A stretch of 64,000 nt of DNA from Patescibacteria group bacterium UBA6201 (GTDB taxonomy: Bacteria; Patescibacteriota; Minisyncoccia; Phycocordibacterales; UBA918): the NCBI GenBank assembly GCA_002422025.1, contig DISV01000005.1:290948-354947 (forward strand), in the 5' to 3' direction. Within the stretch, counting starts at the first letter, position 1; every line of letters begins with the position of its first letter. Below, piece after piece: positions 16,829-49,053 of this stretch. A model generated the notes under the pieces. It was not told the origin of the DNA. It saw only the letters and a program-made list of their open reading frames with translations, and did not search any database. A program made the position numbers and the translations under genes.

Positions 16829-16950
16829 GGTCACAGTGTAGCTGAATAAGGGAAATAAAAAAAGTGTATGACACATTAAGATCACCCGAAATAGCCATGG
16901 TCGCACATTCAGGGCTGAACAACCGAAGACCCTGAACTAGTATTGGCCTA

Positions 16951-18165
16951 TTACAATATATGTCCTGTCAAAATACTCTCCCTCAACTTCTTTGTGAAAT
17001 TTACAATCGTATAAAGATTGTGTATTGAAGCAAGGTGTCCGCCAAGAATCTCGCCGGAACGTAGGAGGTGCGAGAGATATGCTTTGGTGTAGCGTTCACA
17101 CACAAAACAATCACAACCTTCATCAACACGAGAAAAGTCTCGTTGATACTCAGCATTACGTAAATTAGTTTTAACTATTCCCTCTCTCTTATGCTCATAG
17201 ATAGTACCGGTGCGTGCAATACGGGTCGGTGCTACACAATCAAAAGTATCACAGCCCAGTTGTACTCCTTCCATAATGTCTACAGGTTCTCCGATTCCGA
17301 GTAAGTGTCGTGGTTTTTCCTCTGGTAGATTTTCATTGACCACCTTAAGAGCATCCCCCAAATCTTTCTTAGAAAAACTACCACCAATACCAAAACCATC
17401 AAAATCCATCTCTGCCAAAGTTTGTGCGCTTTCTTTGCGCAAATCTAGGAAGCGTCCACCCTGTACCACACCGTAAAGCCCCTGCTTCTTTAAGGCTTCA
17501 TAGTTCTGCTTATGTGCCATTATTGAGCGCTTGGCCCAACGGTGAGTTCTGTCCATCGCCTCCCTCTGGTAATCGTAGTCAGCCGACGGACTGGTGCATT
17601 CATCAAAAGCTACAATGATATCAGCCCCAATAGCGTGCTGTATCTCAATCGAGCGCTCTGCAGTAAAGCGGTGCATCGAACCATCATGATGTGAGGTAAA
17701 AGTTACACCTTCCTCGTCAATCACACAGAGCTTGCCGTGGCTTTCAGCCAAGGTTTTTGAATAGACATTAAGACCGTGAACGATTGGCTTCGCGTCTTCC
17801 TCAACCTCACCGGCCGCAAACTTCGTAACACCTTTACCGAAAGCCGCACCGAGCGAAAAAACCTGAAACCCACCAGAATCGGTCATTAATGGTAGATCGA
17901 GATTGGCAAATTTATGTATCCCTCCGGCTTCTTTAATTGTCTCGTGCCCAGGCTGAAGATAGAGATGATAGGTATTAGCGATAGCCACCTGAGCCTCTAC
18001 TAGGTCTTTTAAGTCTTCTGACTTAAGACTCTTCACTGTGCCTTTGGTTCCCACTGTCACAAAAGCCGGAGTTTCAATGTCTCCGTGTGGAGTATGGATG
18101 ATACCCGCTCTAGCCATAGAGCCAGAGGCGCGTTTAACAACTTCAAAGGAAATAGGAGAGGACAC
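16951..18165 (-). CDS. tgt: Queuine tRNA-ribosyltransferase
   Basis: N-terminus ...ARAGIIHTPHGDIETPAFVTVGT and a C-terminal zinc site CDCFVC...H, typical of Tgt. Confidence 0.9.
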   Translation of the reverse strand: MSSPISFEVVKRASGSMARAGIIHTPHGDIETPAFVTVGTKGTVKSLKSEDLKDLVEAQVAIANTYHLYLQPGHETIKEAGGIHKFANLDLPLMTDSGGFQVFSLGAAFGKGVTKFAAGEVEEDAKPIVHGLNVYSKTLAESHGKLCVIDEEGVTFTSHHDGSMHRFTAERSIEIQHAIGADIIVAFDECTSPSADYDYQREAMDRTHRWAKRSIMAHKQNYEALKKQGLYGVVQGGRFLDLRKESAQTLAEMDFDGFGIGGSFSKKDLGDALKVVNENLPEEKPRHLLGIGEPVDIMEGVQLGCDTFDCVAPTRIARTGTIYEHKREGIVKTNLRNAEYQRDFSRVDEGCDCFVCERYTKAYLSHLLRSGEILGGHLASIHNLYTIVNFTKKLRESILTGHIL

Positions 18166-18838: not shown

Positions 18839-19897
18839 CTAAAATTGCAACAATATTCTACCTTTAGCAATATCATTAAGGAGGTTTGCGGAACTACGAC
18901 TAGCTAAATCATCAAGAAAGGCTTGTCTCGCCTCTCCAAGCATCTCATGTGGCTGAACACGCACCGTAGCGCTTTCTACTGGTATGAGCTCCACTTTCCA
19001 GCCTAAGGCATCGACCATAAGCTTTAATACCAACCCTTCTTGCACCGTTGAAGTCCAATACTGGTCAAATATGAAGTTGCCAAGCGAGTAAAAGATGAGT
19101 CCATCTTTGTAGCTCTCTATATTCTGAACAACATGTGGATGATGTCCAACTACTAAATCAAAACCGCTGTCGATAAGATTGTGTGCTAGATTTTCTTGAG
19201 TCTCATCATTTAAAGGCTCATATTCTGTCCCCCAATGAATATATGCAACCTTCAGGTCTGCCGGACCAGCAGAATCCAGTATATCTTCTATCAAAGAAAC
19301 ATCTGGGCCACCATAAGTAGCATTGGCGTGAAGCACTAATACTCTCTGAGCTTTTTCTTCGATTATCGATAAGGAGGAGGTTGAAATTTGTGTTGCGTGA
19401 CCAAAAGTTTTAAAGCCTACATCCTCTAACACCTTAATGGTATTACGGTACCCCATTACACCATAGTCCAAAGAGTGATTATTTGCTAAAGATAGATATA
19501 CGGGACTTCTAAGTAAGAGCTCACTAACAAGATCGGGTTGCACTGAAAATCTCATTTCCATAAATTGTGTCTGTATATGACTCTCTGGTATTGATGCTTC
19601 GAAGTTCATCAACACCGCATCAGCAATCAACACATCCCTAAGCGCAGACAAGGCATATCCTTTTTCTTCTTGCAGTAGCCTCATCTCTACATCCCTAGCC
19701 AACATAACGTCACCGGTAAAAATGAGACTAAGTGGCTCCTCAACTTCTTCGGGAGACAAACCAGTCGGCTCATTTGCAGAGAGGATTGGGAGACTGATTA
19801 TTTGCTCACTACCAAAATGGAGAACAGCGTATGTAAAAGTCACTCCGCTAAAGACAGTGGCCAGAAATATAGATATCAACAAAACTCGTATATGCAT
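18839..19897 (-). CDS. CapA/PgsA-family metallophosphoesterase (poly-gamma-glutamate/capsule synthesis-like), membrane anchored
   Basis: Calcineurin-like motifs (LSLANNHSLDYG, GHHPHVVQ, YSLGNFIFDQ) typical of the CapA family. Confidence 0.8.
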   Translation of the reverse strand: MHIRVLLISIFLATVFSGVTFTYAVLHFGSEQIISLPILSANEPTGLSPEEVEEPLSLIFTGDVMLARDVEMRLLQEEKGYALSALRDVLIADAVLMNFEASIPESHIQTQFMEMRFSVQPDLVSELLLRSPVYLSLANNHSLDYGVMGYRNTIKVLEDVGFKTFGHATQISTSSLSIIEEKAQRVLVLHANATYGGPDVSLIEDILDSAGPADLKVAYIHWGTEYEPLNDETQENLAHNLIDSGFDLVVGHHPHVVQNIESYKDGLIFYSLGNFIFDQYWTSTVQEGLVLKLMVDALGWKVELIPVESATVRVQPHEMLGEARQAFLDDLASRSSANLLNDIAKGRILLQF

Positions 19898-19974
19898 GCG
19901 CTACTTATACCATCTCAAAATAATGCTTACCACTAACAGCGAGCAAAGTTTTGTTATTACAGAATGTGGTTAAT

Positions 19975-20397
19975 TTAGTATGGTCTTACGTACGAAGGAT
20001 GAAAAATACCAAATGCGCCCATATACATCATTCCCAGTATAAAAGTAATAGCAATTAAAATAGCAATTATAAAAATTGATAAAATTTGCCAACGAAAAAG
20101 GTTACGCCGACCAACACGGAGAGTCTCAAGTTCATCAGAGTTAACTTGGACGTCAATACCGAGTAGTGAATGAATCGCTTCAGGGCTCAGTTTTTTATCC
20201 GTCAAGAACACGTCATGTAGCGTATCTACTCGACTCTTGTGAGTATTAATATTCTCACGCAACACGGTAATTGCAGTCTCTACATCTTCTTTATTCCAAC
20301 GGGCCGAAATAAGCACAGAGCGAATCTCTTCATCAGCTGCAGTAGGGGCCAGACCATTTAATTTCAATATCTGCTCGATATGCGTTCGATCAATCAT
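19975..20397 (-). CDS. Hypothetical protein with C-terminal TM helix
   Basis: 140-aa ORF; no recognised domain. Confidence 0.4.
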   Translation of the reverse strand: MIDRTHIEQILKLNGLAPTAADEEIRSVLISARWNKEDVETAITVLRENINTHKSRVDTLHDVFLTDKKLSPEAIHSLLGIDVQVNSDELETLRVGRRNLFRWQILSIFIIAILIAITFILGMMYMGAFGIFHPSYVRPY

Positions 20398-20411
20398 ACT
20401 AATTTATATTA

Positions 20412-21446
20412 TCAAATCCTACCATCGGCGTTAGCTACATGTTGTGAGTATATTTCTAAAAGCACAATGAACACACTAGTAATAACTGGACCGACAATAA
20501 ATCCAATCGGACCAAATAGCGCCAGGCCTCCCAACACTGAAAGCAATATCAAAAACGGATGCATTGGATGAGAACGACTCATCAAGTATGGTCCAAGGAT
20601 ATTGTCCAGTAATGAGACTGCTACCAAATACCAAACTAGAATACCGACACCAGTTACATAATCACCAAATACAAACGAGTAGACAGCAGCTGGTACGAAG
20701 ACTACGGAAGGGCCAACACCTGGCACTAAGGCAGTAATAGCTACTATGGTACCGAACAAAATTGCTCGGTCGAATCCGAAAATAGAAAAACCAATCGCCG
20801 CAGAGACACCTTGAATAATTGCTACTAGTACCGTCCCAGTGGCCACACCTCTCACAGCAGAGGCCATCCGTCGCAATATCAAGCCATCTTCAATGTCTGC
20901 CAAAGGACTAATTTCAATTAGTTTATTAGTAAACTTTTCTCCATCTCTAAAGAAGTAAAAACAACCAAATACAGCAATAAAGAAGGAAAATAGTGTCGAG
21001 GCAGTACCAACAAAAATGGCACCAAGGTTTCCGGCAAACCACTGTGCACCTTGCCTTAGGTAACTTGCTAGATCTATTTGCAAACCAGGAATTAGGTTCT
21101 GTAGCAAGTTTTCAAAATTATTTAGTGTATCTGCAAGAGAAAACTGATTACTATCAAGTATACGATAAATAGAGATGGCTTCACTGACGAGCATTGATGT
21201 AATCCAAAAAAGTGGGATGACAAAAATGATGATTACAAGCACAGTTGAAATGAGCGCCGCAGTGGTTGGATTATGTCTTGGGGTATAAGCCAACACCTTT
21301 CCGTAAATAGGATAAGAAATAGTGACAATGACGGCCGATAAAGCTAAAGCTGTGATAAACGGAGACATCATCTGCCACAACAAGTATCCTACGATACCCA
21401 TTAGGCCGAAAAAGAATACGTACTCAACAACTCTATTCAGTAACAT
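20412..21446 (-). CDS. AI-2E family (PerM/UPF0118) transporter
   Basis: 8-TM topology and sequence pattern typical of AI-2E family permeases. Confidence 0.75.
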   Translation of the reverse strand: MLLNRVVEYVFFFGLMGIVGYLLWQMMSPFITALALSAVIVTISYPIYGKVLAYTPRHNPTTAALISTVLVIIIFVIPLFWITSMLVSEAISIYRILDSNQFSLADTLNNFENLLQNLIPGLQIDLASYLRQGAQWFAGNLGAIFVGTASTLFSFFIAVFGCFYFFRDGEKFTNKLIEISPLADIEDGLILRRMASAVRGVATGTVLVAIIQGVSAAIGFSIFGFDRAILFGTIVAITALVPGVGPSVVFVPAAVYSFVFGDYVTGVGILVWYLVAVSLLDNILGPYLMSRSHPMHPFLILLSVLGGLALFGPIGFIVGPVITSVFIVLLEIYSQHVANADGRI

Positions 21447-25970: not shown

Positions 25971-26279
25971 CTAACACAAGTGTCGAAGCAAGCCCGTTAT
26001 CACGCCCCATAAGGTGACATCTTCTTCCAAGTTACTCCCTACGGAGTGTCTCTGGACCTTAAGTTCCCCGTCTTCTGCGACCACCAGAATACTGCCACGC
26101 TTAGGACTAAGTGAGCGATCTACTACTAAGGTATCTCCAGCTTTTATATCCGTACCCTCAGGACCATCCGACTCCATCTTCATAAAAAAAGTAGAGCTAG
26201 GGTGCTTGACCATCAAATCGTGGATGTCGAGTGGTCTTTCTTCCCCACTATTTTTCATTACATCAAAAACTTTTCCCAT
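25971..26279 (-). CDS. Stand-alone S24 peptidase-like domain protein (UmuD/LexA C-terminal-like, no HTH)
   Basis: MKMESDGPEGTDIKAGDTLVVDRSLSPKRGSILVVAEDGELKVQRH aligns with the LexA/UmuD GMSM...DGDLL.V...G.IVVA..DGE.TVKRL core. A Ser and a Lys sit in the expected positions. At 102 aa it is UmuD'-sized. Confidence 0.6.
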   Translation of the reverse strand: MGKVFDVMKNSGEERPLDIHDLMVKHPSSTFFMKMESDGPEGTDIKAGDTLVVDRSLSPKRGSILVVAEDGELKVQRHSVGSNLEEDVTLWGVITGLLRHLC

Positions 26280-26333: not shown

Positions 26334-26447
26334 AAATCGAATGCAGTTCTGATGGTTGGAGAAAATTTTATGAGGGAGACGTATACGACATACGATGACT
26401 GAATAAAATTTTTGAAACCACAGAAATGCATCGATTTTAGAAGTTTT
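26334..26447. repeat. Copy A of a ~105-115 bp intergenic element with terminal inverted repeats (MITE-like or structured regulatory RNA)
   Basis: About 85% identical to 54873-54985. Its ends form an inverted repeat (aaatcgaatgcagttctg ... cagaaatgcatcgattt). It starts right at the stop of the CAP-domain gene and lies immediately upstream of the UmuD-like gene. Confidence 0.6.
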
Positions 26448-27492
26448 AGGCTATGAGAGCGCCAGAAGAGGCAAGCAAATGAACCTGAAACAACACAATC
26501 ATCATCAAAAGCATAACTGTCGCATAAGCAATCTGTATCGGATGATGCCTTCTCCACTCAATAATGATGGAAGCTAGTAAAGCCCCAATTATAAACAAAC
26601 CGAGAATAGAATAAATGATCTGGAGCAACAGGCGCGGAGAGGTCAAAATACGCCAAAAGGTTGAAGGCCTTGAAGTGATATTGTCAGTCGGTGCAGAAAT
26701 TATCTCTTCAACATTCTCTACTGCCGTGGCAGCAAAACTTTCATAGACCACGGTTCCATCACTGGTTACACTCGCATTTATCTCGCTGTCTTCTGTAACA
26801 CCGGCGACCTGTGCAGGGATAACAGGCTCTGTTTCCTCTACAATTACTTGCTCAGGTTCAGTCAGCACAAGTTCAGTTTCTGTAATTTCAGGAACCACCT
26901 CAGACACTGTTGCTGGTGCTGCTACCGCAACCGCTGGAGTACCAAACATCTGTACAACAAAAACTGTGTCAAAACCTTCGTATTCACCCTTTGCTGTTCC
27001 GATACCAATCTCAGTATACTTGGTGTTCATAATATTCTCGCGGTGTGTGGGAGACTTAAGCCAAGCATCAACCACTACAGTTGAGTCAGTGAAGTGTACA
27101 GCCAAGTTTTCACCAGCGTGAATGTAGGAATAACCAGCTTCGGTAAACCAATGCCACGGAGAGACACCAGCGGGACTCCAGTGGGCAAAGTAGCCATTCT
27201 TCGCCATATCTTCGGCCTTAAGGCGTGCTGCCTCGTCGAGAACTGGGTTTCTAACTAGTGGAGACTTACCCTCTTCAACACGAGCAGAGTTGGTGGCGTC
27301 GGTCACAACAGCTGGCAAAATTGTAGAGACCAACCATTCAGAACTGACCCAAAGAATTGATTGCAGATTAGCAATGGAAAAGGAGATGAGGACCAAGCCC
27401 ATCATACCAACCAAAGCCGCCCGTTGAAGGACGTGCGGCTTAAAGTCGTTCTCAGCATTCGGAACAAAAAACTTTTTCAGCCAGTTTTTCAC
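26446..27492 (-). CDS. CAP/SCP/PR1-like domain protein with N-terminal TM anchor and C-terminal TM helix
   Basis: CAP domain motifs (GYFAHWSPAG, HAGENLA, VVDAWLKSPTHRENIMNTKYTEIGIG). Confidence 0.75.
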   Translation of the reverse strand: MKNWLKKFFVPNAENDFKPHVLQRAALVGMMGLVLISFSIANLQSILWVSSEWLVSTILPAVVTDATNSARVEEGKSPLVRNPVLDEAARLKAEDMAKNGYFAHWSPAGVSPWHWFTEAGYSYIHAGENLAVHFTDSTVVVDAWLKSPTHRENIMNTKYTEIGIGTAKGEYEGFDTVFVVQMFGTPAVAVAAPATVSEVVPEITETELVLTEPEQVIVEETEPVIPAQVAGVTEDSEINASVTSDGTVVYESFAATAVENVEEIISAPTDNITSRPSTFWRILTSPRLLLQIIYSILGLFIIGALLASIIIEWRRHHPIQIAYATVMLLMMIVLFQVHLLASSGALIA

Positions 27493-27688: not shown

Positions 27689-30600
27689 TTATTCAAGACT
27701 CCAGAAGTAGGCAGTAATAGCTCCAATGGTCACTATTAGTGACGGCCAGAAAGCTCCTACCAGTCCGAAGAATACTGCACCAGCTAATAGTAGCAAGGCG
27801 ACAGCCATAAATGTGCTCTGTACTGCCCTCATAGCCATAGTCTCAGGATATTCGTTTCTTCTCCAGAGTGCTACAGCAGAAGCTAGTAACCAGAGAAGCA
27901 CTAGTAGCCAGTAATAATTCTGCCACGAGCTAAGTATGGCTCCTTCAGAATCTTCATCTTCTTCGTTTACAGTCATCTCGGTAATCTCATTCTCTTCTTG
28001 TCCTTCAGCATCTTTTGCTTCTTGTACGAGCTGCAAGTCAGCTTGTGTGATTGAATCACCCAATACAACACCTGATGACTGACCTGCTGGACTTTGAGCC
28101 GAGACATAGGAAGCAAGTAGGAACTCAGCTAGACGATTCTTAATTTGTTCAAGCAAATCGTATATTTCTCCGTCCGTGCTAGCACCAAGTACTCGAGGAG
28201 TAGCACTTCTATTTGTTCCTCCACCTCCTCCACCCCCACCTCCGTCAGTATCAGTGTTAGTTTCAGGGATAACTGTGTTAGTAGTTGGTTCGAAGTCATA
28301 TGCCTCAGTATGAGTATTATTGCCAGTCTTAATACCGATTACAAAGTTATCAATATTACCTGTAAACCCACCTGGATAAGGCTCTCCTACTCGAACACCA
28401 AGGAATGAGTCAGTTGTACGAGTACCTGCGTTAGGGAATGCGGCCTTAATTTGATTCCATGTCTTTGTTACTGAACCAGAGTCACCACCAAGCTCTGCTG
28501 GCCAATTAGCTCCGGAATACTTCCAAAGAGCATTGCCTCCATTTATAGCATCCCACTCTTGCCAAGTATCTGCCAATACAGTGCCATTGTCTCTTGGTAC
28601 ATAAATAAGTCGTCGTTGCCAAGTATCAGTGCCATTAAAGTCAACATTGAAGTGCAAATAAGGTGCTGCATTTACACCAGCGCCGTTTCCAGCCGACTGA
28701 GAGTAGGTTGAGAATTTAAGGTCAGTAATATCAGCCAACTTTACGTTACTGAACTGATAAGTGGCCAAGTTGCGTCGTGCATTGGTACTAGACGCAACCT
28801 CTACAGGCACACTGATTTCAACACTACCTAGACCTAGTAGCACTCCAGCAGGACCAGTCACAAATGAGCCCAAACTGTTGTTGACTCCTTCAGCTCCATC
28901 AATACTTCCTGTCTGATCATTATAGAAGAACCAATTAGTTGATGAGAGATCTTCAGCTTCAACTGTAGTAGTGCCAGAAGTAAATGATGGTGGAGTAGAT
29001 GGAGTGGTTTTGTAGACAATAGTGAATTCATCGCTGCACTCTGATTCATGACCGCCGTTATCGACAGCAATAATACAGAAGTAGTGAGTCCCCTCTCCTT
29101 GGTTAAAGGAACCTGAGCGTGAGTTTGCAGAACCATTGTTCACCGTCCAAGCAGTAGATGTACTGTTGAAAGCAGAGGTAGAAATGTTGTTCCAGTACTT
29201 GTATATGTAGTGACTAAAGTCTGGTTCGGTATTAGCGTCCCAAACTGCGGTACCAGAAACCAACTCGGTTGTGCCACCGTCAGCCACAGGGTTACTGTTT
29301 GAGTCGTTCCATCCTAGACCGGTTGGGACAGCTGGAGTGCCGTTCATTGGGCCTGAACCATCTACATCGTAGTAGTAGTGAACAGGGTCACTCCAACCAC
29401 TAACGTTGCCGGCATTATCAAAGGCACGAACCCAGATGGTCACACCACCTTGTTCAGAAGTTGAAGGAATATGATTGCGAGAAGTGCCGTCTACGTCACG
29501 ACAACCTACCCAATCTCCATCAATAGTTACGTCTGGACAGGTAGAAGCGCTAAACGTATGTCCATCGTCATAACGGTAAGCGATTTGGTAATAGTCGATA
29601 CCGCTAGCATCAGTGACTACAGTCCATTCATTTAGAATCGGAGCAGTTGTAAAGATTTGTTCAGGATTTGGAAAAGTTATTTCTGGTACAGATGGTCCAG
29701 TAGCATCATAAGTAACTACAAAAGGATCAGAGTAGTTAGAACAATCATCAGAGGAATTACAGGCACTGAATGCAAAATAATGAGTCCCCTCACCTTGAGT
29801 GAAATTGTCGTTATACACTCCAAGACTAGATGAGTGAAGTGCTAAGTTGGTTGGATTCCAAGGAGTAGCCTCTTTAAAGACTGACCCGACGATATCATTC
29901 CAATACTTAAGTTGATAACGATTAACATCAAGTGAGGACGAGAGGTCAAAGGTAAAGTATTGCTCTTGAGTATACCCGCCATTAGACACGACTGTATTGC
30001 TCGGAGTTGCAGTGAAGATTGCTGTTGGAATTGTGGGAGTCTCTGTAACTTCACCAAGTTCAAGGTCAGACCAGATAGTTGTGTAACTTTGCCCACCATT
30101 GAAACTATTAAATATAGTCTCATTAAACTGATTGAAATTATGTCCATCAATTATAGAACTGTACGAATGAACAAGACTTCCATCAACAAAAAATTCAAAT
30201 TGATTAGTATATGGGTTTTGTAACACTTCAAGACTTACACTTGTACCATAGGTACTTGATGCCACATCAGTCCAGCCACCATTTGCTGTATCCCATACTC
30301 GAATCCGAGGATTCGCTTCAAGATTTGTAAACTCAATGATTGGCCAAGCCAAAGAACCAGTGGTTGTGGCAGACAAAACGCCCCATAAACCAGCACGCAC
30401 ATCTGTTACAGAACTCCATGAACTGTCGATATACAGATTTGCTTTGACGCTATTATTGCCACTTGGGAGAGTCGCCTTTACTCCTTCCGTTTTATAGTAA
30501 CCTTCAGGACTTGCAGAAGGACCATGTACATTAATAACTAACTGATCGGGTGTAGCAGTCCATCCACCAGTTGGGTTAGTACGGTCAGGCGACCAAGTTA

Positions 30601-31525
30601 ATCCGCCGAATTCTTGTGGTGTATGCACTACCACGAAAATCGTAAAGTGATTAAGTTCAGAAATCGTTACAGTATCTTCTGATGCTTGAACCTGAACACT
30701 ATCATCAGAAATGATATCAGCGTTGGAGAGTTGATCTACACTTTCAGCATACACAATACTTGGGACTTCATTTGCACTAGACGGCAAAGGTAATTCGAGA
30801 TCATAAGCAAACATACCATTCTCCATCGAAGAAGTAATATCGTAAGCAACATTACTTATAGCCCCCAATGAAGCCACCTGTTCGTCAGTCAAAATAACCT
30901 CCTCAATAGATAGACTGCCAGCAACTTCTGGGAGGCTAGTGAAAGTAACTTTTACTTGGGAGTTTTGTGGAGCAACATACGCCACACCTAATTTAACGTT
31001 ATCGACTGTAGCAACACCATTCTCGCCGAGCTGAAGGGTTACTTCTTTATTCCCAGAAAAAAGATCAACTGCTTCTTTTACTATTGCAGAAGCTGCTTCA
31101 ATCACTGTCGAAACAATACCTTTATTTTCCTCATCAACTACATCATCTGAACTAGATGCAACTTCTTCCGAACTAGATGCCACATCTTCTGTAGTAGTTG
31201 CACTTTCGTTTTCATCAGAAATAGTTGGAATATTCTCCACTTCATCAACCCCACTTTCTTCGTTATCAATAATTTCTGTGGCCTCTTGTTGTTCTGCGAC
31301 TTCTTCAGAAGCTTCAACCTCCTCAACAAGTTCCTCAGAATCTTCAACTTGCTCAGAACTTTCCGATACAACTTCTGGAGTTGAAATTTCTGTCGGCTCT
31401 GCATTAACTTCCTCAGCGTAAGTAGTTAACACACCAATCGGCAAAGATGTTACCAAGAGTGAGGCTATAGCTAATAAAGCGGCGGTCTTTCGTAGTGAAT
31501 TTGGGATTCTGTGTGTGTAGTTCAT
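27689..31525 (-). CDS. Giant cell-surface protein (1278 aa): signal peptide, acidic N-terminal region, repeated Ig-like modules, poly-Gly linker, C-terminal TM domain
   Basis: Signal peptide. Internal paralogous repeats (YWNDIVGSVF...GEGTHYFAFSACNSSDDCS / YKYWNNISTSAF...GEGTHYFCIIAVDNGGHESECS). A ~200-aa module shared with the 32969..34984 protein. A GGGGGGGG tract followed by TPRVLGASTD. Three C-terminal TM helices. Confidence 0.7.
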   Translation of the reverse strand: MNYTHRIPNSLRKTAALLAIASLLVTSLPIGVLTTYAEEVNAEPTEISTPEVVSESSEQVEDSEELVEEVEASEEVAEQQEATEIIDNEESGVDEVENIPTISDENESATTTEDVASSSEEVASSSDDVVDEENKGIVSTVIEAASAIVKEAVDLFSGNKEVTLQLGENGVATVDNVKLGVAYVAPQNSQVKVTFTSLPEVAGSLSIEEVILTDEQVASLGAISNVAYDITSSMENGMFAYDLELPLPSSANEVPSIVYAESVDQLSNADIISDDSVQVQASEDTVTISELNHFTIFVVVHTPQEFGGLTWSPDRTNPTGGWTATPDQLVINVHGPSASPEGYYKTEGVKATLPSGNNSVKANLYIDSSWSSVTDVRAGLWGVLSATTTGSLAWPIIEFTNLEANPRIRVWDTANGGWTDVASSTYGTSVSLEVLQNPYTNQFEFFVDGSLVHSYSSIIDGHNFNQFNETIFNSFNGGQSYTTIWSDLELGEVTETPTIPTAIFTATPSNTVVSNGGYTQEQYFTFDLSSSLDVNRYQLKYWNDIVGSVFKEATPWNPTNLALHSSSLGVYNDNFTQGEGTHYFAFSACNSSDDCSNYSDPFVVTYDATGPSVPEITFPNPEQIFTTAPILNEWTVVTDASGIDYYQIAYRYDDGHTFSASTCPDVTIDGDWVGCRDVDGTSRNHIPSTSEQGGVTIWVRAFDNAGNVSGWSDPVHYYYDVDGSGPMNGTPAVPTGLGWNDSNSNPVADGGTTELVSGTAVWDANTEPDFSHYIYKYWNNISTSAFNSTSTAWTVNNGSANSRSGSFNQGEGTHYFCIIAVDNGGHESECSDEFTIVYKTTPSTPPSFTSGTTTVEAEDLSSTNWFFYNDQTGSIDGAEGVNNSLGSFVTGPAGVLLGLGSVEISVPVEVASSTNARRNLATYQFSNVKLADITDLKFSTYSQSAGNGAGVNAAPYLHFNVDFNGTDTWQRRLIYVPRDNGTVLADTWQEWDAINGGNALWKYSGANWPAELGGDSGSVTKTWNQIKAAFPNAGTRTTDSFLGVRVGEPYPGGFTGNIDNFVIGIKTGNNTHTEAYDFEPTTNTVIPETNTDTDGGGGGGGGGTNRSATPRVLGASTDGEIYDLLEQIKNRLAEFLLASYVSAQSPAGQSSGVVLGDSITQADLQLVQEAKDAEGQEENEITEMTVNEEDEDSEGAILSSWQNYYWLLVLLWLLASAVALWRRNEYPETMAMRAVQSTFMAVALLLLAGAVFFGLVGAFWPSLIVTIGAITAYFWSLE

Positions 31526-31839
31526 AAAATTTCTAATATTCTGAATAAAACCAAATTATTTATGCTGAAATAAGATCAAGATATAAAAAACGGGCCACAC
31601 ACGAAATCGTATGCGGCTTTAAACCGTCCCCCTCCAATATCCTACCCCTTTACAGTCAGCATTCATTAGTATTTTTAACACTACACTCTTTTTTCCTCTT
31701 ATGCCAATTGACACCAAGAATTAATTATGTGATATGTTGCTCCTATAAAGATTCAGTGCCTAAAGTAAACTTACTGTTTTGTTGTCTAACCCTCCGTTTT
31801 TGTAGTAATTAAGGTGCTCTTACTCTCTTGGACCCTACT

Positions 31840-32964
31840 TTATCTAGAAAATATACCCTTGAACCAATTCCATACACTACCGAAGAAGCTAGTTCCTGCC
31901 GAGACAGCAGAAGCGGTCTGCTCTTTAACGGTAGTGGCAGCCTTTTGACCCATACCTACAACCTCTTCGACTGTACTAGTCACCCCTTCCACTATTTCTT
32001 TACCGCTGGAAAATGGATCAGAAGTAGATTGACCACTAGAGCTACTTTGACGATAGGTTATACCCTGATTACGATACCAGGCTATCTCGGACTGCTGATC
32101 AGTGGTTAAAGGAAATTCTTGAGCAAATTCGCAGTATATCTCATTCACCATCTTGCGGGTTGTATAGTAGACGAACCGAGTTGGCAGAGGCAATCCCCAG
32201 GGTGTCAGTACTCTATCCGAGTACTTTTGCTGGAACTCATACACTGCCTGCTGAGTCGCTGCGTCGTACACTCCATTGACCTCCAAATCAAAGTGGCCCT
32301 CGAGATCACGAAGGAAAGTCTGCAGCTTGATTACCTCAGACACATCGTTCTGACGATTAGGATGGATATAGCTATAAAGCAGCTGTTCACAAGTATCAGT
32401 TGTTTCTCCAAGCACCTGCGGAGTGGCTTCTACGACAGCTCGAGATCGAGTCGAACGACTACCACCCCCACCACCGCCACCAGTATCATTTGTCACCACT
32501 GGAACAATTACGGTTGAACCTTCTTCAAACCCAACAATTAAGTCAAAGCCAAAGTTTTTCCCCATCAAGGGGTCCTGTGGAGCATCTGTTTTGAGCGTAA
32601 GAGTGATGGTGTAGTTGTGTGTTCCGCCATCAGGAATAGTGGATAGCTCAAAAGGATTAATTAACTCACCTAGCTCTCCACTGGCTGAGAAGTCTCCAGT
32701 AATCGTAAAGGTCATCTGATCAGCAAACAGAAGGAAGTCGCCAGTCGTGGACGCTACTTGTATTCCCGCCTTTTGCGTAAAGCCAGTAGTGTTTTCGACT
32801 GCAAAGCTACCACTCGCTGATGAGTTAGGCACCATATTAGTAGCTGTGATCGGCATATCAGAAGTGGTAACAAATGCCTCAACAATAGCCGGCATAACCA
32901 AAGCAGCCATAACTAACAGAGTCAAAGCATAACGTGTAGTAAAGTTTTTAAGAGATACGTTCAT
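31840..32964 (-). CDS. Secreted protein with poly-Gly linker and C-terminal peptidoglycan-binding (PG_binding_1-like) domain
   Basis: Signal peptide. A GGGGGGG tract followed by TPQVLGETTD, the same motif as in the giant protein. The PG-binding consensus is VIKLQTFLRDLEGHFDLEVNGVYDAATQQAVYEFQQKY. Confidence 0.65.
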   Translation of the reverse strand: MNVSLKNFTTRYALTLLVMAALVMPAIVEAFVTTSDMPITATNMVPNSSASGSFAVENTTGFTQKAGIQVASTTGDFLLFADQMTFTITGDFSASGELGELINPFELSTIPDGGTHNYTITLTLKTDAPQDPLMGKNFGFDLIVGFEEGSTVIVPVVTNDTGGGGGGGSRSTRSRAVVEATPQVLGETTDTCEQLLYSYIHPNRQNDVSEVIKLQTFLRDLEGHFDLEVNGVYDAATQQAVYEFQQKYSDRVLTPWGLPLPTRFVYYTTRKMVNEIYCEFAQEFPLTTDQQSEIAWYRNQGITYRQSSSSGQSTSDPFSSGKEIVEGVTSTVEEVVGMGQKAATTVKEQTASAVSAGTSFFGSVWNWFKGIFSR

Positions 32965-32968
32965 AAAC

Positions 32969-34984
32969 TTATTCGGTTTCAGTTACTGATTCTGGTTCCG
33001 GAGCTGGCTCTGGCTCTGGTTCTGGTTCAGGTTCTGGTTCAGTATCAGTTTCTGGAGTTGTTTCTGGTTCTGACTCAGTAGTTTCCTCGGTCTCTGGTTT
33101 TTCTACCAACGCATCCCCGCTTCCATCCTCTGGATCAATTACTTCTACCTCCTCTTCCTTCTTACCATCACCTTCAGGATCAATCACTCCCTCATCCACA
33201 CCCTCCCCATCTTCCTTCACAGGTTCATCACCCTCTATACCCTCTTCCGTAACGGATTCAATTGGAATTTCACCAGGATCAGTAACAGCAGCTTCGTCAG
33301 TCGGTTCAATTACTGTATCACCTCCGCCTCCATCTGCTCCTGCTCCTTCTTCATCAATCTTCTCCTCGTCTGCTTCCTCTATGGCCTCAACAGTCTCCAC
33401 AATCTCAACTGGAGGAGTTTCAACCACTAGCTCTACCTCCTCTTGAGACTCTTCACCTATTAGATACTCTCCGCGTGAGGTTAGTAATGCCACCATTCCT
33501 TCTATCATTTCATCGGAAAATCCAGAATCAATCAAATCTTGACGAGAAAAGCGGTTTTCCTCACCTGGAGTTGGTTCTGGATCTACCCAAGGACCAATAC
33601 CGTCAATAAACCGCGCAAATGATTTACCCTCAGGAACGTTACTGGCATTACATACACCCACTGTATCATTAGTGTTTGGATTGTCTGGTGTAGGGTCATT
33701 TTCACAAGCAGTTGAGTCTTCGCCATACTCGTACTCATCTTTAATTTGATCTAATGAGTTGTATAACTTCACGGTATCGCCTGTGTTGTTGAGTATAGGT
33801 TTATTCATATAAACCACCATAAATCCGTTGGCTGGAATAGTTGTAGTACCTGATGATATATGAGTAACAGCTGTCACAGAATTTATTTCTATGGTGTTAC
33901 CAGTACCACCGCTATAATCAGTAACATACCAGTCAGTCAAGTCTACTTCAAAATCCTCATTGTTATATATCTCAACCCACTCTCCATCTGGCATGTTGGC
34001 ACTATCATCGTCACTGTTCGGTAAGAACTCGTTTAAGACCACATCACCATCGGTAGGTACAGACACTTCACTTTCTGCGGTTGGCTCAAAGTCGAAGGTA
34101 CGGGTATGAGTAGAAGCACCAGAATCAATACCAATAGTGAACGAGTCAATATTCTCAATATAACCATCTACATAAGGCTCGCCCACCCGAAGACCCAACC
34201 ATGAGTCGGTAGCTCTTGTTTGTATGCTTGGGTAGGCTGCAAGAATATCACTCCATTTTTGAAATTGAGCAGTTGGGTCAACAAATGGTGTACCTGTCTC
34301 CGCAGGCCATGAGGTAGCAGCCCCTCCGCAACCAGACATACCAGACCAGCACCAGAGAGCCTCTCCTCCCGCTATTGCATCCCATTCTTGCCAGCTATCT
34401 TGGATAACAGTTCCATTTTGATTCGGCACAAAAGCCAATCGTTTCTGCCAAGTGTCAGTACCATCAAAGCTGACGTTGAAATTTATATAGGCAGAACGGT
34501 CAAGACTACCGCCATTTCCGGCTGACGGATTATAAGTAACGTAAGACATCTCAGTAATGTCTGCGAGCGCAACATCTCTAAACATATATGTTGCTATATT
34601 GCGTCGCTCAGTACCACTCACACCAATTTGAGCGCTACCTGAACCATAGAAAGGTGTGCCGGGACCATCGACGAAAGAACCTAGAGAATTATTAATTGTA
34701 TCTGTCTCATCATTGTAGAAAAACCAAGAAGTAGGATTGAGTAATTCTGTTAACTTATCGGTTCCTAAGTCTTCAGCCATAACTACGATTGTTTCTTCTG
34801 TGTCAGAAGACCAAACACCTGTAGACACACTATTACCTTCAATGGAGGTGCTGGCTTGCCAAGCGGCAAAGGTGGTTTGAATTGCTAGACCACTCGAGTT
34901 CATAAACATAGAGCAAACTAAAAGTACCTTTGCCCAAAACGGCAAATGTTTGCTACTAATTCTGAATAATGAGTGTTTTTGCAT
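32969..34984 (-). CDS. Large secreted protein (671 aa) with SipW-cognate-type signal peptide, shared surface module, lamin-tail domain and acidic EPEP C-terminal tail
   Basis: The N-terminal TFAAWQASTSIEGNSVSTGVWS resembles the TasA-type signal region. The LTD motif is NEFLPNS...EWVEIYNNEDFEVDLTDWYVTDY...GDTVKLYN. A ~200-aa module is paralogous to one in 27689..31525. The tail is PEPEPEPEPEP. Confidence 0.7.
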   Translation of the reverse strand: MQKHSLFRISSKHLPFWAKVLLVCSMFMNSSGLAIQTTFAAWQASTSIEGNSVSTGVWSSDTEETIVVMAEDLGTDKLTELLNPTSWFFYNDETDTINNSLGSFVDGPGTPFYGSGSAQIGVSGTERRNIATYMFRDVALADITEMSYVTYNPSAGNGGSLDRSAYINFNVSFDGTDTWQKRLAFVPNQNGTVIQDSWQEWDAIAGGEALWCWSGMSGCGGAATSWPAETGTPFVDPTAQFQKWSDILAAYPSIQTRATDSWLGLRVGEPYVDGYIENIDSFTIGIDSGASTHTRTFDFEPTAESEVSVPTDGDVVLNEFLPNSDDDSANMPDGEWVEIYNNEDFEVDLTDWYVTDYSGGTGNTIEINSVTAVTHISSGTTTIPANGFMVVYMNKPILNNTGDTVKLYNSLDQIKDEYEYGEDSTACENDPTPDNPNTNDTVGVCNASNVPEGKSFARFIDGIGPWVDPEPTPGEENRFSRQDLIDSGFSDEMIEGMVALLTSRGEYLIGEESQEEVELVVETPPVEIVETVEAIEEADEEKIDEEGAGADGGGGDTVIEPTDEAAVTDPGEIPIESVTEEGIEGDEPVKEDGEGVDEGVIDPEGDGKKEEEVEVIDPEDGSGDALVEKPETEETTESEPETTPETDTEPEPEPEPEPEPAPEPESVTETE

Positions 34985-34991
34985 AAAAATT

Positions 34992-35540
34992 TTAATCTTG
35001 TCTTTCGGTTTCGTTTTCTTTAACTCCTTCTCTACTCGTTCTTATCGATACCATTATCTTCTTAACCTCATCCACTATGACCAGAAACGCAGGAATGATA
35101 ATAATGGCAAGAAACCCCCAGGGTGTCTTGGCTACATCGAGTAGGTAGCCAATAAATGGTAAGTGAAAAATCACTTTGCCATAAATCTCGCTTTCGAGGA
35201 CAGGATTGCGATCCGCATAGTCATTGGCGTCGCCTTTAGTGGTGAACTCGCGTTCGTCTCCGTCACCTTCGGCAGCTGCAACAATTCGGTGCGTAATTGG
35301 CACCTCCAAGCTACTCTCTATTCTTTTGAAGGTGACTATATCACCCTCAGCATAATCGGCTTTTGGATAAATGAAGACTACGCTCCCAGTAGGGATAGCT
35401 GGCTCCATTGAACCAGTCAAAACCGTACGGGAATCAAGAGGAAAACTGGGAATGGAAAGGATAGATATGAGAAGCAGGGTCGCGACAGCCAAAAAGACCG
35501 TCACAACGATATAAAGAAGGATGTTAAAGAACAATTTCAT
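34992..35540 (-). CDS. Signal peptidase I, archaeal/eukaryotic-like S26B type (SipW-like)
   Basis: N-terminal TM helix, then LTGSMEPAIPTGSVVFI (Ser box), a His in PITHRIV, and a TKGDANDYAD box. It is 182 aa with a C-terminal TM helix, as in SipW. Confidence 0.75.
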   Translation of the reverse strand: MKLFFNILLYIVVTVFLAVATLLLISILSIPSFPLDSRTVLTGSMEPAIPTGSVVFIYPKADYAEGDIVTFKRIESSLEVPITHRIVAAAEGDGDEREFTTKGDANDYADRNPVLESEIYGKVIFHLPFIGYLLDVAKTPWGFLAIIIIPAFLVIVDEVKKIMVSIRTSREGVKENETERQD

Positions 35541-35617
35541 AACGCTTTATGCCAAAAGGTCTCTAGACCTTTATCCTCAAGCCCACCGAAGTGGTGAGCT
35601 TGAGAAAAAGGTTTGGA

Positions 35618-36286
35618 TTAGGAAGGAAGTTCGTCAGGCAGAGTTCCTACAAATACTTCAGTCCATGCACATTCACCATTATGAAGACCGTAATCAGCAT
35701 CTTCTGCAAATCCGCCCATTTGACGCATCGCAATCACCTCACCAGGACCAAAACCATTAGATCCATCGGCAATCTTAACTGCATTTGCTGCACCATAGAA
35801 TGCACTTACAAGTGTGAAGGTACCATTGTCAGGATCACCAGCATCACCGACATTTCCTACGCTAGAACCTGTTTCATATGTTGTGTTATCTATTGCTGTG
35901 CCATAACCCATCCAGTTTGATCCATCACCTGGGGTACTAGCACGCCAGGCAATCTTTGTTGCATCACAGGCCCCTGGATTACCTGATACAGGATCAATAT
36001 AGAACCATAGATCAAGTTCCATTGAGCTGTCGTTTGTAACCTCTGCTCGTTCCGCCGGAGAACTCTTGAAGCCAGGAAGGACCTCAGTTTCTATAATCGG
36101 CTTTGACTCAGAACCATACGCTGCCACTCCTTCAGCTGTAATCCCAAGTACAGCGGTACTGATTGTATTACCTTCAATACCATCAGTTGCTTGCCACGCA
36201 GCGTATGTAGCACCTAGGACAAGGGCTGTCATTGCTACTATCACGCTTGCTGCGAGCAGTACCTTTTTGTTTAAAATTGCTGTCAT
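35618..36286 (-). CDS. Secreted protein with SipW-cognate (TasA/camelysin-class) signal peptide
   Basis: N-terminus ...ALVLGATYAAWQATDGIEGNTISTAVLGI matches the A-[FYW]-x-D/A...N-x-[FI]-S-[ST]-[GA]-x-L pattern of SipW substrates. It is nearly identical in pattern to the N-terminus of 32969..34984 and lies directly upstream of the SipW-like gene. Confidence 0.6.
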   Translation of the reverse strand: MTAILNKKVLLAASVIVAMTALVLGATYAAWQATDGIEGNTISTAVLGITAEGVAAYGSESKPIIETEVLPGFKSSPAERAEVTNDSSMELDLWFYIDPVSGNPGACDATKIAWRASTPGDGSNWMGYGTAIDNTTYETGSSVGNVGDAGDPDNGTFTLVSAFYGAANAVKIADGSNGFGPGEVIAMRQMGGFAEDADYGLHNGECAWTEVFVGTLPDELPS

Positions 36287-36365
36287 AAAAATTTTTATTT
36301 TTACTTAATTTAATAAATTACTAATCCAGCAATGCTGGCTGTGAGTACTGTGAAAACATAGTAAT

Positions 36366-36403
36366 TAAAAAAGACACCGCACAAAATTGCGCGGTGTCTT
36401 TTA
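36366..36403. terminator. Hairpin with flanking A/T runs (bidirectional terminator candidate) between anti-sigma gene and surface-protein operon
   Basis: taaaaa-agacaccgc-acaaaattgc-gcggtgtct-ttt. Confidence 0.5.
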
Positions 36404-36530
36404 AGACTGTATCTACCGGAATGGTTTCACCATTCATTACACAGACTGCATTCATGGTTTCTTCATTGTACGCTCATGTATTTCGACAGCAACGTTGACA
36501 TGTGAATTACTATGTATCGGGATAATGACT

Positions 36531-37487
36531 TTATCTTACACCTCTGAAGATTGGGTGGTTGGCACAGAGAGATTTTTTTGCCACCTCAATTACAGTTTCA
36601 GGTGTTGTGGTGGAGAGGTTCGGACGCGATGACAAAACTACGTCGTCATCCTCCACCACCTCCTTGATATCTTCTAATAGATCCAATAATTTCGCTCTAC
36701 GTTCTTCAACCTCCTCCACAAAATTGTTGCGCTCCTCACGCCATTTAGTCACACCTGGTGCATCATCTAGTATCCACGGGAATACTGCGCAAGCTACCAT
36801 TCCATCACGCACATCTTCGGTTGTGGTAGCGACCAACATACGCACCTTACGTCCAGAAAGTAGTAACTCAGAATCTTTTGGACGTAACTCGGTTATGGTG
36901 ATATTCCACTCTTCGTTCTTAACATCAATAAAGCGTACCTGCTCTTGATCTCCATACTCCAATCTTTTAACTGCACCTAACATGCGTCCAGCCAATGGAT
37001 TTTGCCACATTTGTGCCTCAAATTCTGCTCGAGATTGATAGCTTTCTAACTGCTCTCCCATATATTGATCAAGATAGAAGCCTGCTCCAATTGAATGAAG
37101 CATCATCGCACCCACCACACTAAAACCAAAGCTACTGCCAACCACAAGGTATAAAGGATATTTATATCCTCTCTTAGTGTTGCGAAGGTTGAAATAGGCG
37201 ACCAAGGTGAGCGAGCCAAAAGCCAAAAGCCACAGATAGGGCAACGTATCGAGGAAGAAGGTTAAGAAACTTTGGTGGGTCGCCTCGTAAAGCGAGTAGC
37301 CGATATATAGGGAAGTAAAGGATAATATTGCTAAAGCCACAGCTCCCAGAATCACTGACAAGACCCAGGCGGCCCAAAAAGCGTATTCATAAGATAGCCA
37401 ATACAGCCGAGAATGAGGGGTGATTCCCTCCCTTTCCAGACGGTCTAAGACACTCTGCTTTATTTTGTTATTCATAGATTCACTCAT
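36531..37487 (-). CDS. Membrane protein co-transcribed with the ECF sigma factor (putative anti-sigma factor)
   Basis: Start overlaps the sigma-factor stop (ATGA). It has a short cytoplasmic N-terminus, TM helices, and an extracytoplasmic domain with an acidic C-terminal end. The anti-sigma assignment rests on position only. Confidence 0.4.
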   Translation of the reverse strand: MSESMNNKIKQSVLDRLEREGITPHSRLYWLSYEYAFWAAWVLSVILGAVALAILSFTSLYIGYSLYEATHQSFLTFFLDTLPYLWLLAFGSLTLVAYFNLRNTKRGYKYPLYLVVGSSFGFSVVGAMMLHSIGAGFYLDQYMGEQLESYQSRAEFEAQMWQNPLAGRMLGAVKRLEYGDQEQVRFIDVKNEEWNITITELRPKDSELLLSGRKVRMLVATTTEDVRDGMVACAVFPWILDDAPGVTKWREERNNFVEEVEERRAKLLDLLEDIKEVVEDDDVVLSSRPNLSTTTPETVIEVAKKSLCANHPIFRGVR

Positions 37488-38056
37488 ATATCTAATGACT
37501 CAAGCTTTTGCTTTAATTGCTTCTTAGCGCGGTGTACCAAGGTACCTACCGTACCAGTCGGTACATGAAGGACATCAGAAATATCTTCATACTCAAGATG
37601 TTCAAAGTAACGCAAAATTAGCACTTCACGGTACTTGTCGTCGAGTTGTTCTAGTGCACGCAGGAGTAGTTTATTACTCACCTGTTGGTCAAAAATGGCT
37701 TCCGGATCAACATTATCAGCTGCGATTAACTTCACAATATCATCTCCTTCAGATACAAGATAACCTTCCGGACGTGACTGAAGTTTACGATACCAGCTAA
37801 TAGCTTCGTTGTGCGCAATGCGATATATCCATGCGGAAAAAGAAAGACTTTGGTCGAAGCTGTTTAGATTACGATACACTTTGATAAAAATTTCCTGCAG
37901 CACATCAGCTCTATCGTCTGGATTACGAACACCGAGACGGGTGATGTACCGTTCGAGACGTGCTTCATAACGCTCCACCAGATTCCCAAAAAACGCTCGG
38001 TCGCGTAGCGAATGTGTCACCAGTTCATTGTCGGTTGGGGCCGAAGATTCGGGCAT
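37484..38056 (-). CDS. ECF-type RNA polymerase sigma factor (sigma-70 family, regions 2 and 4)
   Basis: Region 2 (LQEIFIKVYRNLNSFDQSLSFSAWIYRIAHNEAISWYRK) and region 4 HTH (LEYEDISDVLHVPTGTVGTLVHRAKKQL). Confidence 0.85.
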   Translation of the reverse strand: MPESSAPTDNELVTHSLRDRAFFGNLVERYEARLERYITRLGVRNPDDRADVLQEIFIKVYRNLNSFDQSLSFSAWIYRIAHNEAISWYRKLQSRPEGYLVSEGDDIVKLIAADNVDPEAIFDQQVSNKLLLRALEQLDDKYREVLILRYFEHLEYEDISDVLHVPTGTVGTLVHRAKKQLKQKLESLDI

Positions 38057-38116
38057 ACCCAGACATTATACGCTTTATAGGCTTATTTGTTTCAAGTCGG
38101 TGATATAATCGAGGTA

Positions 38117-48966: not shown

Positions 48967-49053
48967 GGAGGGTTCGCATAGTGGCCTAGTGCGCCGCCTT
49001 GGAAAGGCGGTATCGGGGAAACTCGATCGAGGGTTCAAATCCCTCACCCTCCG
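48967..49053 (+). tRNA. tRNA-Ser (anticodon GGA), class II with long variable arm
   Basis: GGAGGGT-TC-GCAT-AGTGGCCTA-GTGC-G-CCGCC-TTGGAAA-GGCGG-TATCGGGGAAACTCGATC-GAGGG-TTCAAAT-CCCTC-ACCCTCC-G. It has a 7-bp acceptor stem, a GG in the D-loop, anticodon GGA and T-loop TTCAAAT. No CCA is encoded. Confidence 0.8.

Follow-up and report, generated by a model that had tools for sequence, protein, structure and literature searches.

A TasA/SipW-type gene cassette in Patescibacteria and its candidate donor-strand fiber

The closest described relatives of the system considered here are the TasA fibers of Bacillus. In TasA, the donor strand consists of the first 11 residues of the mature protein, and the signal peptidase SipW cuts just ahead of them (PMC9674648). 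A second protein, TapA, has an N-terminus that imitates the donor strand of TasA and nucleates polymerization (PMC9674648, PMC10151520). TasA homologs have already been noted in Patescibacteria, solely as a phyletic pattern of the Pfam family PF12389 (PMC9245690), and apart from that survey, none of the 20 best-ranked among 772 retrieved papers brings TasA or camelysin together with Patescibacteria. Here, we analyze a minus-strand locus (positions 27689–38056) in a 64-kb stretch of DNA, hereafter the window, from the uncultivated, ultrasmall Patescibacteria group bacterium UBA6201 (contig DISV01000005.1). An initial annotation had proposed that this locus encodes a dedicated SipW-type secretion system analogous to Bacillus tapA-sipW-tasA, in an AT-rich lineage in which no such locus had been characterized. 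The analogy holds up: the peptidase motifs are intact, the candidate subunit has a TasA fold, and the genes are co-conserved. The lineage is Patescibacteria: the 90% cluster to which the TypA of this organism belongs also contains proteins of 'Ca. Nomurabacteria'. With a G+C content of 40–45%, the window is AT-rich only mildly. The Pfam survey qualifies the claim that the locus type was uncharacterized, and the novelty of a system so clearly of TasA/SipW type is limited. Our reading, to which we assign a probability of about 0.6, is that four of the genes form the Patescibacterial version of the TasA/SipW donor-strand fiber system.

All seven consecutive minus-strand open reading frames (ORFs) of the initial annotation were confirmed, coordinates included, and all the peptide strings quoted from them were found. 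The features of the locus, in the direction of transcription, are:

37484–38056, minus strand: extracytoplasmic function (ECF)-type sigma factor, 190 amino acids
36531–37487, minus strand: multi-pass membrane protein, 318 amino acids, overlapping the sigma gene by 4 nucleotides (nt)
36368–36500, minus strand: leader element copy 1, upstream of p222
35618–36286, minus strand: p222, a TasA/camelysin-fold secreted protein, 222 amino acids
35541–35617, minus strand: stem-loop spacer between p222 and the peptidase gene
34992–35540, minus strand: SipW-like S26B signal peptidase I, 182 amino acids
32969–34984, minus strand: p671, a lamin-tail-domain (LTD) protein, 671 amino acids
31840–32964, minus strand: p374, a peptidoglycan-binding protein, 374 amino acids
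31585–31713, minus strand: leader element copy 2, upstream of p1278
27689–31525, minus strand: p1278, a giant surface protein, 1278 amino acids

The intergenic gap is 244 nt upstream of p222 and 77 nt between p222 and the peptidase gene; the next two gaps are 7 and 4 nt. Relatives of the locus exist in metagenome-assembled genomes of Patescibacteria, Saccharibacteria, Parcubacteria, and Paceibacterota. We compared them by means of gene tables and BLASTP, with the window proteins as queries and every fetched locus (L001 onward, of which L001–L003 are the window sequence) as target. The order TasA-like protein, SipW-like peptidase, LTD protein, p374-like protein recurs in approximately 14 distinct Patescibacteria loci. 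Specifically, wherever the contig is long enough, the full four-gene order is present (the window, L004, L007, L008, L009, L010, L014–L016, and L019/L020, with the third ORF broken in L014), and the shorter contigs L011–L013 and L021 carry the first two or three genes. This recurrence in divergent loci bears out the earlier expectation that the peptidase is co-conserved with its substrates. It also redraws the module, which had been described as seven genes: all seven are real, but they make up at least three transcription units, and because only the order of p222, peptidase, LTD protein, and p374 is kept across loci, the core is four genes, not seven.

Assignment of the peptidase is straightforward. 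In a scan of NCBIfam profiles, it scores 108 bits against TIGR02228, for which the cut-off is 51.85, and an alignment with human SEC11A and SEC11C shows that it keeps LxGSMEPA (Ser44), PI(T/V)HR (His84), and TKGD(A/N)N (Asp104), with GSMEP at position 43, THR at 83, and GDAN at 103. A hydropathy scan places one transmembrane segment at the N-terminus and another at the C-terminus. The S26B/SipW-type identity proposed for this protein is thus upheld, catalytic Ser and His included, and by sequence the enzyme is an intact signal peptidase of the archaeal/endoplasmic reticulum S26B type. Because its 111 bits against the Bacillus SipW equivalog NF046067 lie under that model's cut-off of 190, it is SipW-like and, by the NCBI criterion, not a SipW ortholog. 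Its gene lies directly downstream of the p222 homolog in every locus examined. Taking the peptidase and p222 together, we consider the TasA/SipW-type assignment very probable.

The p222 protein is laid out as a signal peptide, a SipW cleavage site that alignment with TasA predicts between GATYA and AWQAT, a donor-strand-like segment (AWQATDGIEGNTISTAVLGITA), and a beta-sandwich core. Across the family, the N-terminus is very strongly conserved (MTAILNKKVLLA...LGATYAAWQA..I.GNTVSTA.L.I.A), and two cysteines are invariant. In an AlphaFold2 (AF2) model of p222, with a predicted local distance difference test (pLDDT) score of 78.8, a confident beta-sandwich begins at about residue 45 and residues 1–43 are unplaced, as would be expected of a strand in need of a partner. 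Searching the PDB with this model in Foldseek returns the TasA fiber 8aur_A as the best match (E 2e-5, probability 1.0, template-modeling score 0.49), and the Pyrobaculum bundling pilus 7ueg and chaperone-usher pilins rank lower. A weak fold match to TLP-1a (9ikj), an unrelated environmental donor-strand fibril, was set aside. A PDB search with the p222 sequence returns noise only.

Profile comparison agrees with the fold. Specifically, hhalign aligns the p222 family over 198 columns (99.3% probability, E 4e-20) with a set drawn from the matches to a p222 profile search, 7 of whose 8 members pass PF12389, and the remote members of that search bear the canonical GGTFAYFSD...GNTFSTG N-terminus. 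TIGR04088, the model of the SipW-cognate signal, matches 19 of 23 p222 homologs at E<=0.1 (best 4.7e-5), and TIGR04089 also matches 8. Fold match and profile-level homology to PF12389 proteins together sustain the earlier description of the 222-residue protein as TasA-like: p222 belongs to the TasA superfamily as a divergent beta-sandwich protein with a SipW-type signal at its N-terminus. The family is small. A search of 5.8 billion proteins yields 24 clusters, 187 representatives are found at E<=1e-3 among 1.8 billion, and degenerate-pattern scans return 7 loci in metagenomes and 5 in genomes.

The LTD protein p671 begins like p222. It consists of a SipW-type signal and a donor-strand-like N-terminus (cleavage after A, then AWQASTSIEGNSVSTGVW), a module at residues 60–307, an LTD at 310–421 (PF00932, 58 bits, its only Pfam match), and an acidic, Glu/Pro-rich tail at 510–671 that is 31% Glu. 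Residues 8–46 of p222 and 19–57 of p671 are 49% identical over 39 amino acids, and 11 of the first 22 mature residues are common to the two. The near-identical signal of the LTD protein had been recognized before; the donor-strand-like segment that it also shares with p222 had been missed. An AAWQA-type motif is absent from all other ORFs of the window. The arrangement is general: in 9 of the 9 loci compared, the LTD protein has the motif (A)W.(A/S)(S/T)..I..N.(V/I)(S/T).G.W after its hydrophobic segment, paralleling the start (~18 residues) of the mature p222 homolog encoded at that locus, and 6–12 of 22 positions are identical in these pairs. The remainder of the LTD proteins is unrelated to p222 and varies between loci. 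Pfam and NCBIfam reveal no TapA-domain homology in p671, only PF00932 and a sub-threshold match to TIGR04088; p671 is a TapA analog, not a member of the TapA family. A C-terminal ...VTETE string, present in LTD proteins of several loci but absent from those of L015 and L019, was dropped as a motif.

The module of approximately 250 amino acids that follows the p671 N-terminus (residues 60–307, positions 34064–34807) recurs in p1278 (residues 847–1086, positions 28268–28987) at 49% identity. It is rich in aromatic residues (WFFYND...WQEWDA...RVGEPY...FDFEP), and profile searches find no relative in Pfam, NCBIfam, or the PDB sequences. The LTD proteins of L004 and L007 contain it, and those of more distant loci do not. 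The module is common to the presumed fiber tip and to the membrane-anchored p1278, and of all parts it is the one most obviously suited as a candidate for binding.

The fourth protein, p374, consists of an ordinary signal peptide (cleavage between VEA and F), a beta-sandwich N-terminal domain, a poly-Gly linker, a PG_binding_1 domain (28 bits, cut-off 23), and a hydrophobic/amphipathic C-terminal tail. The signal peptide is of the A-x-A type, and the mature N-terminus that follows it is strictly conserved as F(V/I)TT.D.P. The N-terminal domain (residues 31–147) is modeled by AF2 as a beta-sandwich at pLDDT 74–89, and the TasA fiber is among its best structural matches. Compared directly with the p222 family profile, it gives a probability of only 0.8%; with the PF12389-positive set, hhalign gives a probability of 88.6% (E 2.6e-6). 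That alignment spans template columns 61–211 only, beginning at the 'PGD' strand and ending with the 'QG..F.F.F' strand at the terminus, a range that corresponds to the TasA core without the signal/donor segment. The description of p374 as a secreted peptidoglycan-binding protein therefore stands, with the addition of a probably TasA-core-like, donor-less N-terminal domain that had been missed. Homologs of p374 were found with the full-length query; the N-terminal 165 amino acids alone found none. In the Parcubacteria homologs, a transmembrane helix and basic residues replace the C-terminal tail, and in two homologs a three-helix transmembrane anchor like that of p1278 does so.

Do these proteins assemble, or are they only processed? 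The peptidase could merely mature monomeric or coat-forming surface proteins, namely a camelysin-like surface protein, an LTD adhesin, and a wall-bound protein, with the shared N-terminus acting as a peptidase recognition element and no fiber being made. The TasA family does include camelysin-type cell-surface proteins, its Pfam name is Peptidase_M73, and the fold match of p374 is generic. Several of our results also weigh against assembly as a TasA-type fiber. First, p222 has no match to PF12389 at E<=0.1. Second, against TIGR04088, p222 (15.7 bits) and p671 (15.6 bits) both fall under the cut-off of 19, so that the two SipW-cognate, TasA-class signals proposed earlier are shared by the two proteins and detectable at family level but sub-threshold in the window proteins themselves. 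Third, within-locus co-variation of the p222 and LTD N-termini is not significant (permutation p = 0.14); because locus-specific co-variation is absent, the shared segment looks like a family-wide constant and not like a co-evolving pair. On the other side, the shared segment runs ~18 residues past the predicted cleavage site, beyond what a peptidase needs, and hhalign aligns it with the TasA donor-strand region. The best structural neighbors of p222 are assembled donor-strand fibers, and p222 has no HExxH motif, on which ground a metalloprotease reading was rejected. A conserved stabilizer hairpin after the p222 gene, described below, is typical of an abundant structural subunit. We therefore regard processing without a fiber as unlikely, and fiber formation as the somewhat favored outcome.

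From the alignment to the TasA donor region and the unplaced strand in the monomer model, we infer that p222 would polymerize by N-terminal donor-strand exchange. The proposed sequence of events is as follows. SipW would cut p222 and p671 after ...TYA and ...TFA, respectively, at the predicted sites A28|A29 and A45|A46, exposing the AW(Q)A...I.GN.(V/I)ST strand as the new N-terminus. The LTD protein, a donor only, would insert its strand into the first p222, nucleating the chain as has been proposed for TapA, and each p222 would then donate its N-terminal strand to the next. The last free strand would be taken by the p374 domain, an acceptor only, tying the fiber to the peptidoglycan and the membrane. 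Because p671 would only donate, it would cap one end and start the chain, and because p374 would only accept and is tied to peptidoglycan and membrane, it would cap the other. The product would be a polar fiber with the LTD and the 250-residue module, presumably an adhesin, at the tip, p222 as shaft, and p374 as base. In this scheme, p222 is the presumed major subunit, p671 is, by analogy, the presumed TapA-like nucleator or tip, and p374 is the presumed cell-proximal acceptor and anchor. This tripartite tip–shaft–base arrangement is a tentative proposal, which we hold with less than even confidence.

The RNA features of the locus suggest how subunit dosage could be set. Directly downstream of the p222 stop codon lies a very stable stem-loop (z-score -5.1), accompanied by a second, weaker hairpin and a short run of T. 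Because it has no clear U-run, the stem-loop is probably an mRNA stabilizer or partial terminator. An equivalent hairpin of 10–14 bp, with different stem sequences, follows the stop codon in 11 of 11 loci (the window, L004, and L007–L015), Parcubacteria included. Such post-gene hairpins are typical for differential expression of an abundant major subunit. Presumably, the stem-loop raises the dose of p222 over that of the downstream gene products, and it would thereby increase the ratio of shaft to minor subunits.

A second conserved element precedes p222. Its consensus comprises a TGTCAAYRTTG box, TTGnnn-N16/17-TAnAAT, 4–11 nt, CCATGAATGC, a mini-ORF, a GC-rich terminator, and 65–86 nt before the start codon. 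The nearly leaderless mini-ORF, MN(A/T)..., has 11–24 codons. In the window, copy 1 carries the box TGTCAACGTTG (36490–36500), sigma-70-like -35 and -10 elements, and the invariant CCATGAATGC that starts its mini-ORF (ATG at 36455); its terminator hairpin spans approximately 36398–36373 with a T-run, and the p222 start codon follows 86 nt further. Copy 2, upstream of p1278, carries the box TGTCAATTGG, the -10 element TAAAAAT, and ATGAATGC, which starts the mini-ORF MNADCKGVGYWRGTV and its stop codon; a terminator scan places its hairpin at 31617–31594 with a T-run. A covariance model scores copy 1 at 76.6 bits and copy 2 at 60.9 bits (E 3e-9), with folding z-scores of -6.1 and -3.4, respectively, and 9 of the 13 terminator stem pairs covary. 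This model finds the two window copies and one copy per related locus, and no others in the window or the loci. Rfam returns no family at gathering score, only weak, terminator-driven matches to Leu and Thr leaders. The box itself is not enriched in the window (5 matches, 5.6 expected). The copies in relatives are:

L004, 9834–9923: leader element
L008, 955–1071: leader element
L011, 5325–5401: leader element
L012, 785–865: leader element
L014, 9863–9938: leader element
L015, 9862–9937: leader element

This element could be a translation-coupled attenuator that co-regulates the operon and p1278, a proposal we find plausible at somewhat less than even odds. Alternatively, it could be an independent small RNA gene or the terminator of the upstream gene, with p222 and p1278 transcribed from separate downstream promoters. 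A complete promoter-to-terminator unit of ~90 nt does resemble a small RNA gene, the 65–86 nt of AT-rich sequence between terminator and start codons could hide a promoter, and the mini-ORF peptide is conserved no further than MN(A/T). In contrast, the leader is found upstream of the p222 homolog in 7 distinct loci irrespective of the upstream gene, it is duplicated ahead of p1278, and a consensus scan detects no promoter between terminator and ATG. Moreover, of the 8 copies, 6 have a mini-ORF that stops 2–10 nt short of the main terminator stem and 1 has the stop within the loop; in the p222 leader of the window, the mini-ORF runs through the terminator instead, a departure that counts against coupling. 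We consider the small RNA/terminator alternative possible, though not probable.

A further possibility concerns the ECF sigma factor. Held by a membrane anti-sigma factor, it could directly drive the fiber operon and p1278 upon an envelope or contact signal, and ECF-sigma control of the locus had been suggested in the initial annotation. The identity of the sigma factor is secure (TIGR02937, 115 bits, with Sigma70_r2, PF04542, and r4_2, PF08281, as its only domains). Its 318-residue partner has transmembrane segments at 34–64 and 112–130 in a hydropathy scan and is always encoded next to the sigma gene in relatives, at 34–47% identity. Thus, sigma identity and gene overlap stand as first described, but the partner matches no anti-sigma family; with no Pfam or NCBIfam match of any kind, it has no recognized anti-sigma domain. 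On the basis of the 4-nt overlap, the membrane topology, and the conserved pairing, it is a candidate anti-sigma factor.

Direct control would fit the placement of the pair, which directly precedes the cassette in the window, L004, and L014 and lies close by in L011 and L015, as well as the conserved TGTCAAYRTTG box ahead of the p222 and p1278 promoters and a CGTA at the -10 in 5 of 8 copies. However, the distance from box to -10 varies from ~7 to 35 nt, which is unfit for a -35 element and suggests that the box is an operator instead. The conserved hexamers TTGnnn-N16/17-TAnAAT are sigma-70-like; by eye, no ECF-type promoter (AAC-N16/17-CGT) is seen upstream of p222, p1278, or the sigma gene. 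The promoter of the sigma gene (38057–38086) is a near-consensus, housekeeping-type TTGAAA-N17-TATAAT without a shared ECF motif, and it ends 8 nt before the ATG. This geometry, which the mini-ORFs share, implies an almost leaderless mRNA. Finally, the pair adjoins the cassette in one subclade only: the Parcubacteria cassettes L009 and L010 lack it and are preceded instead by aminoacyl-tRNA synthetase and TatD genes. The suggestion of ECF control is therefore not borne out. The sigma pair is a clade-specific neighbor, its control over the operon, though possible, is unsupported, and we judge direct control improbable.

The remaining member of the original seven, p1278, consists of a signal peptide, an acidic region, repeated Ig-like domains, its copy of the 250-residue module, a poly-Gly/VLG junction, and three C-terminal transmembrane helices. 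It matches no Pfam or NCBIfam family and has no syntenic counterpart in the fetched loci; L004 has a 191-residue protein that matches the transmembrane end only. Its C-terminal helices, shared leader, and shared module support the place it had been given in the module, but syntenic conservation does not, and p1278 is an accessory, lineage-specific giant surface protein. Its junction motif, poly-Gly(5–9), basic residues, and P.(V/I)LG(A/E)(S/T)T, recurs in several Patescibacterial surface proteins between the extracellular domains and the wall- or membrane-proximal part (p374 162–190, p1278 1095–1120, the p374 homologs P0170–P0183, and L019 4206–5288). This motif may act as a linker or mark a site of processing.

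Additional observations concern the surroundings of the cassette. One Parcubacteria genome harbors two paralogous cassettes, both followed by genes with type IV pilin-like N-termini (for example, GFTLFEILIV... and GFTLVELLIY...); one of the products contains Laminin_G_3 (L009, 13690–14808 and 17697–19310; L010, 14019–15134 and 16781–18238). In L020, two bona fide PF12389 genes (111–848 and 864–1439) directly precede the gene for a distant member of the p222 family in the same cassette, and thus some Patescibacteria combine several TasA-like paralogs. In one subclade, the conserved downstream neighbor of the cassette is a gene whose product has a CAP/SCP domain, one transmembrane segment at the N-terminus, and two at the C-terminus:

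Window, 26446–27492, minus strand: CAP/SCP gene, downstream of p1278
L004, 15629–16666: CAP/SCP gene
L008, 5565–6629: CAP/SCP gene
L014, 14873–16060: CAP/SCP gene
L016, 6279–7466: CAP/SCP gene

Downstream of the CAP gene in the window lies a fragment of an S24 (UmuD/LexA-like) peptidase, 102 amino acids long (25971–26279, minus strand). L004 has an equivalent (16675–16980) and, 2.5 kb further downstream, an ImpB/DinB-type polymerase gene (19506–20627). This neighborhood is probably unrelated to the fiber cassette. The only Rfam matches at gathering level in the window are two tRNA genes (8271–8343, minus strand; 48967–49053, plus strand).

To our knowledge, every Patescibacterium in culture lives attached to another microbe. 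In the literature we retrieved, type IV pili are the surface fiber studied for this attachment. If the donor-strand model is correct, the cassette would supply a second, mechanistically different candidate adhesive fiber for episymbiont–host attachment, and Patescibacteria would join Firmicutes and Archaea as the third major group that uses the TasA donor-strand principle. The division into donor-only, donor-plus-acceptor, and acceptor-only proteins constitutes a directly testable assembly model that could clarify the disputed role of TapA as nucleator or anchor. Earlier phyletic surveys relied on the Pfam model, which misses the p222 family, and may therefore have under-counted TasA-like systems. 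The leader, in turn, provides a candidate cis-regulatory element for a phylum with little documentation of such elements. New here are the Pfam-invisible p222 family, the LTD protein as TapA analog, the donor-less peptidoglycan-binding protein as a fourth component, the order of four genes that divergent Patescibacteria strictly keep, and the shared leader. Whether these features amount to a new class of polar, chaperone-free donor-strand pilus, with a donor-only tip, a TasA-like shaft, an acceptor-only peptidoglycan anchor, and attenuator co-regulation with a giant adhesin, is speculative, and we advance the idea as a doubtful one.

How does this locus compare with known systems? Like attenuators of the trp/leu/thr type, the leader places a promoter, a short ORF, and an intrinsic terminator ahead of the regulated genes. 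It differs in having no regulatory codon runs and no recognizable antiterminator, and in a nearly leaderless mini-ORF whose stop abuts the terminator. Sortase-assembled pili offer the same tip–shaft–base logic and a base subunit tied to peptidoglycan. In our model, however, the subunits would be held by non-covalent strand complementation and the fiber attached through PG_binding_1, and the seven proteins include no match to a sortase family in Pfam or NCBIfam and no LPXTG motif. Chaperone-usher (type 1/P) pili likewise are polar tip/rod/anchor fibers built by donor-strand exchange, with a dosage hairpin after the major-subunit gene. No evolutionary relationship connects them to the present system: none of the seven proteins matches a chaperone or usher, and the polarity is inverted. 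Specifically, the chaperone-usher tip is acceptor-only, whereas the presumed tip here is donor-only and the presumed base acceptor-only.

Closer comparisons come from within the TasA superfamily. The AbpA/AbpB system of Pyrobaculum calidifontis, whose structure 7ueg is among the p222 fold matches, also uses a TasA-homologous subunit and donor-strand complementation, with an adjacent TapA-like accessory proposed to act as both assembly initiator and adhesin (PMC9245690). The archaeal operon differs in having no dedicated signal peptidase, and its accessories are unrelated to the LTD protein and p374. From Bacillus tapA-sipW-tasA, the present cassette departs in several respects. The subunit gene comes first; the accessory is built from an LTD, the 250-residue module, and an acidic tail and is no TapA homolog; and a fourth protein is added, in which a donor-less TasA-core-like domain is fused to a peptidoglycan-binding domain and an anchor. 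In addition, p222 goes undetected by PF12389, a leader/terminator element stands where Bacillus uses SinR, and the host is a Patescibacterium. The two systems nonetheless have in common a dedicated S26B SipW-type peptidase encoded between its substrates, a major subunit that folds as a TasA beta-sandwich and has a donor-strand region at its N-terminus, and an accessory protein whose mature N-terminus mimics the donor strand, as that of TapA does (PMC9674648, PMC10151520).

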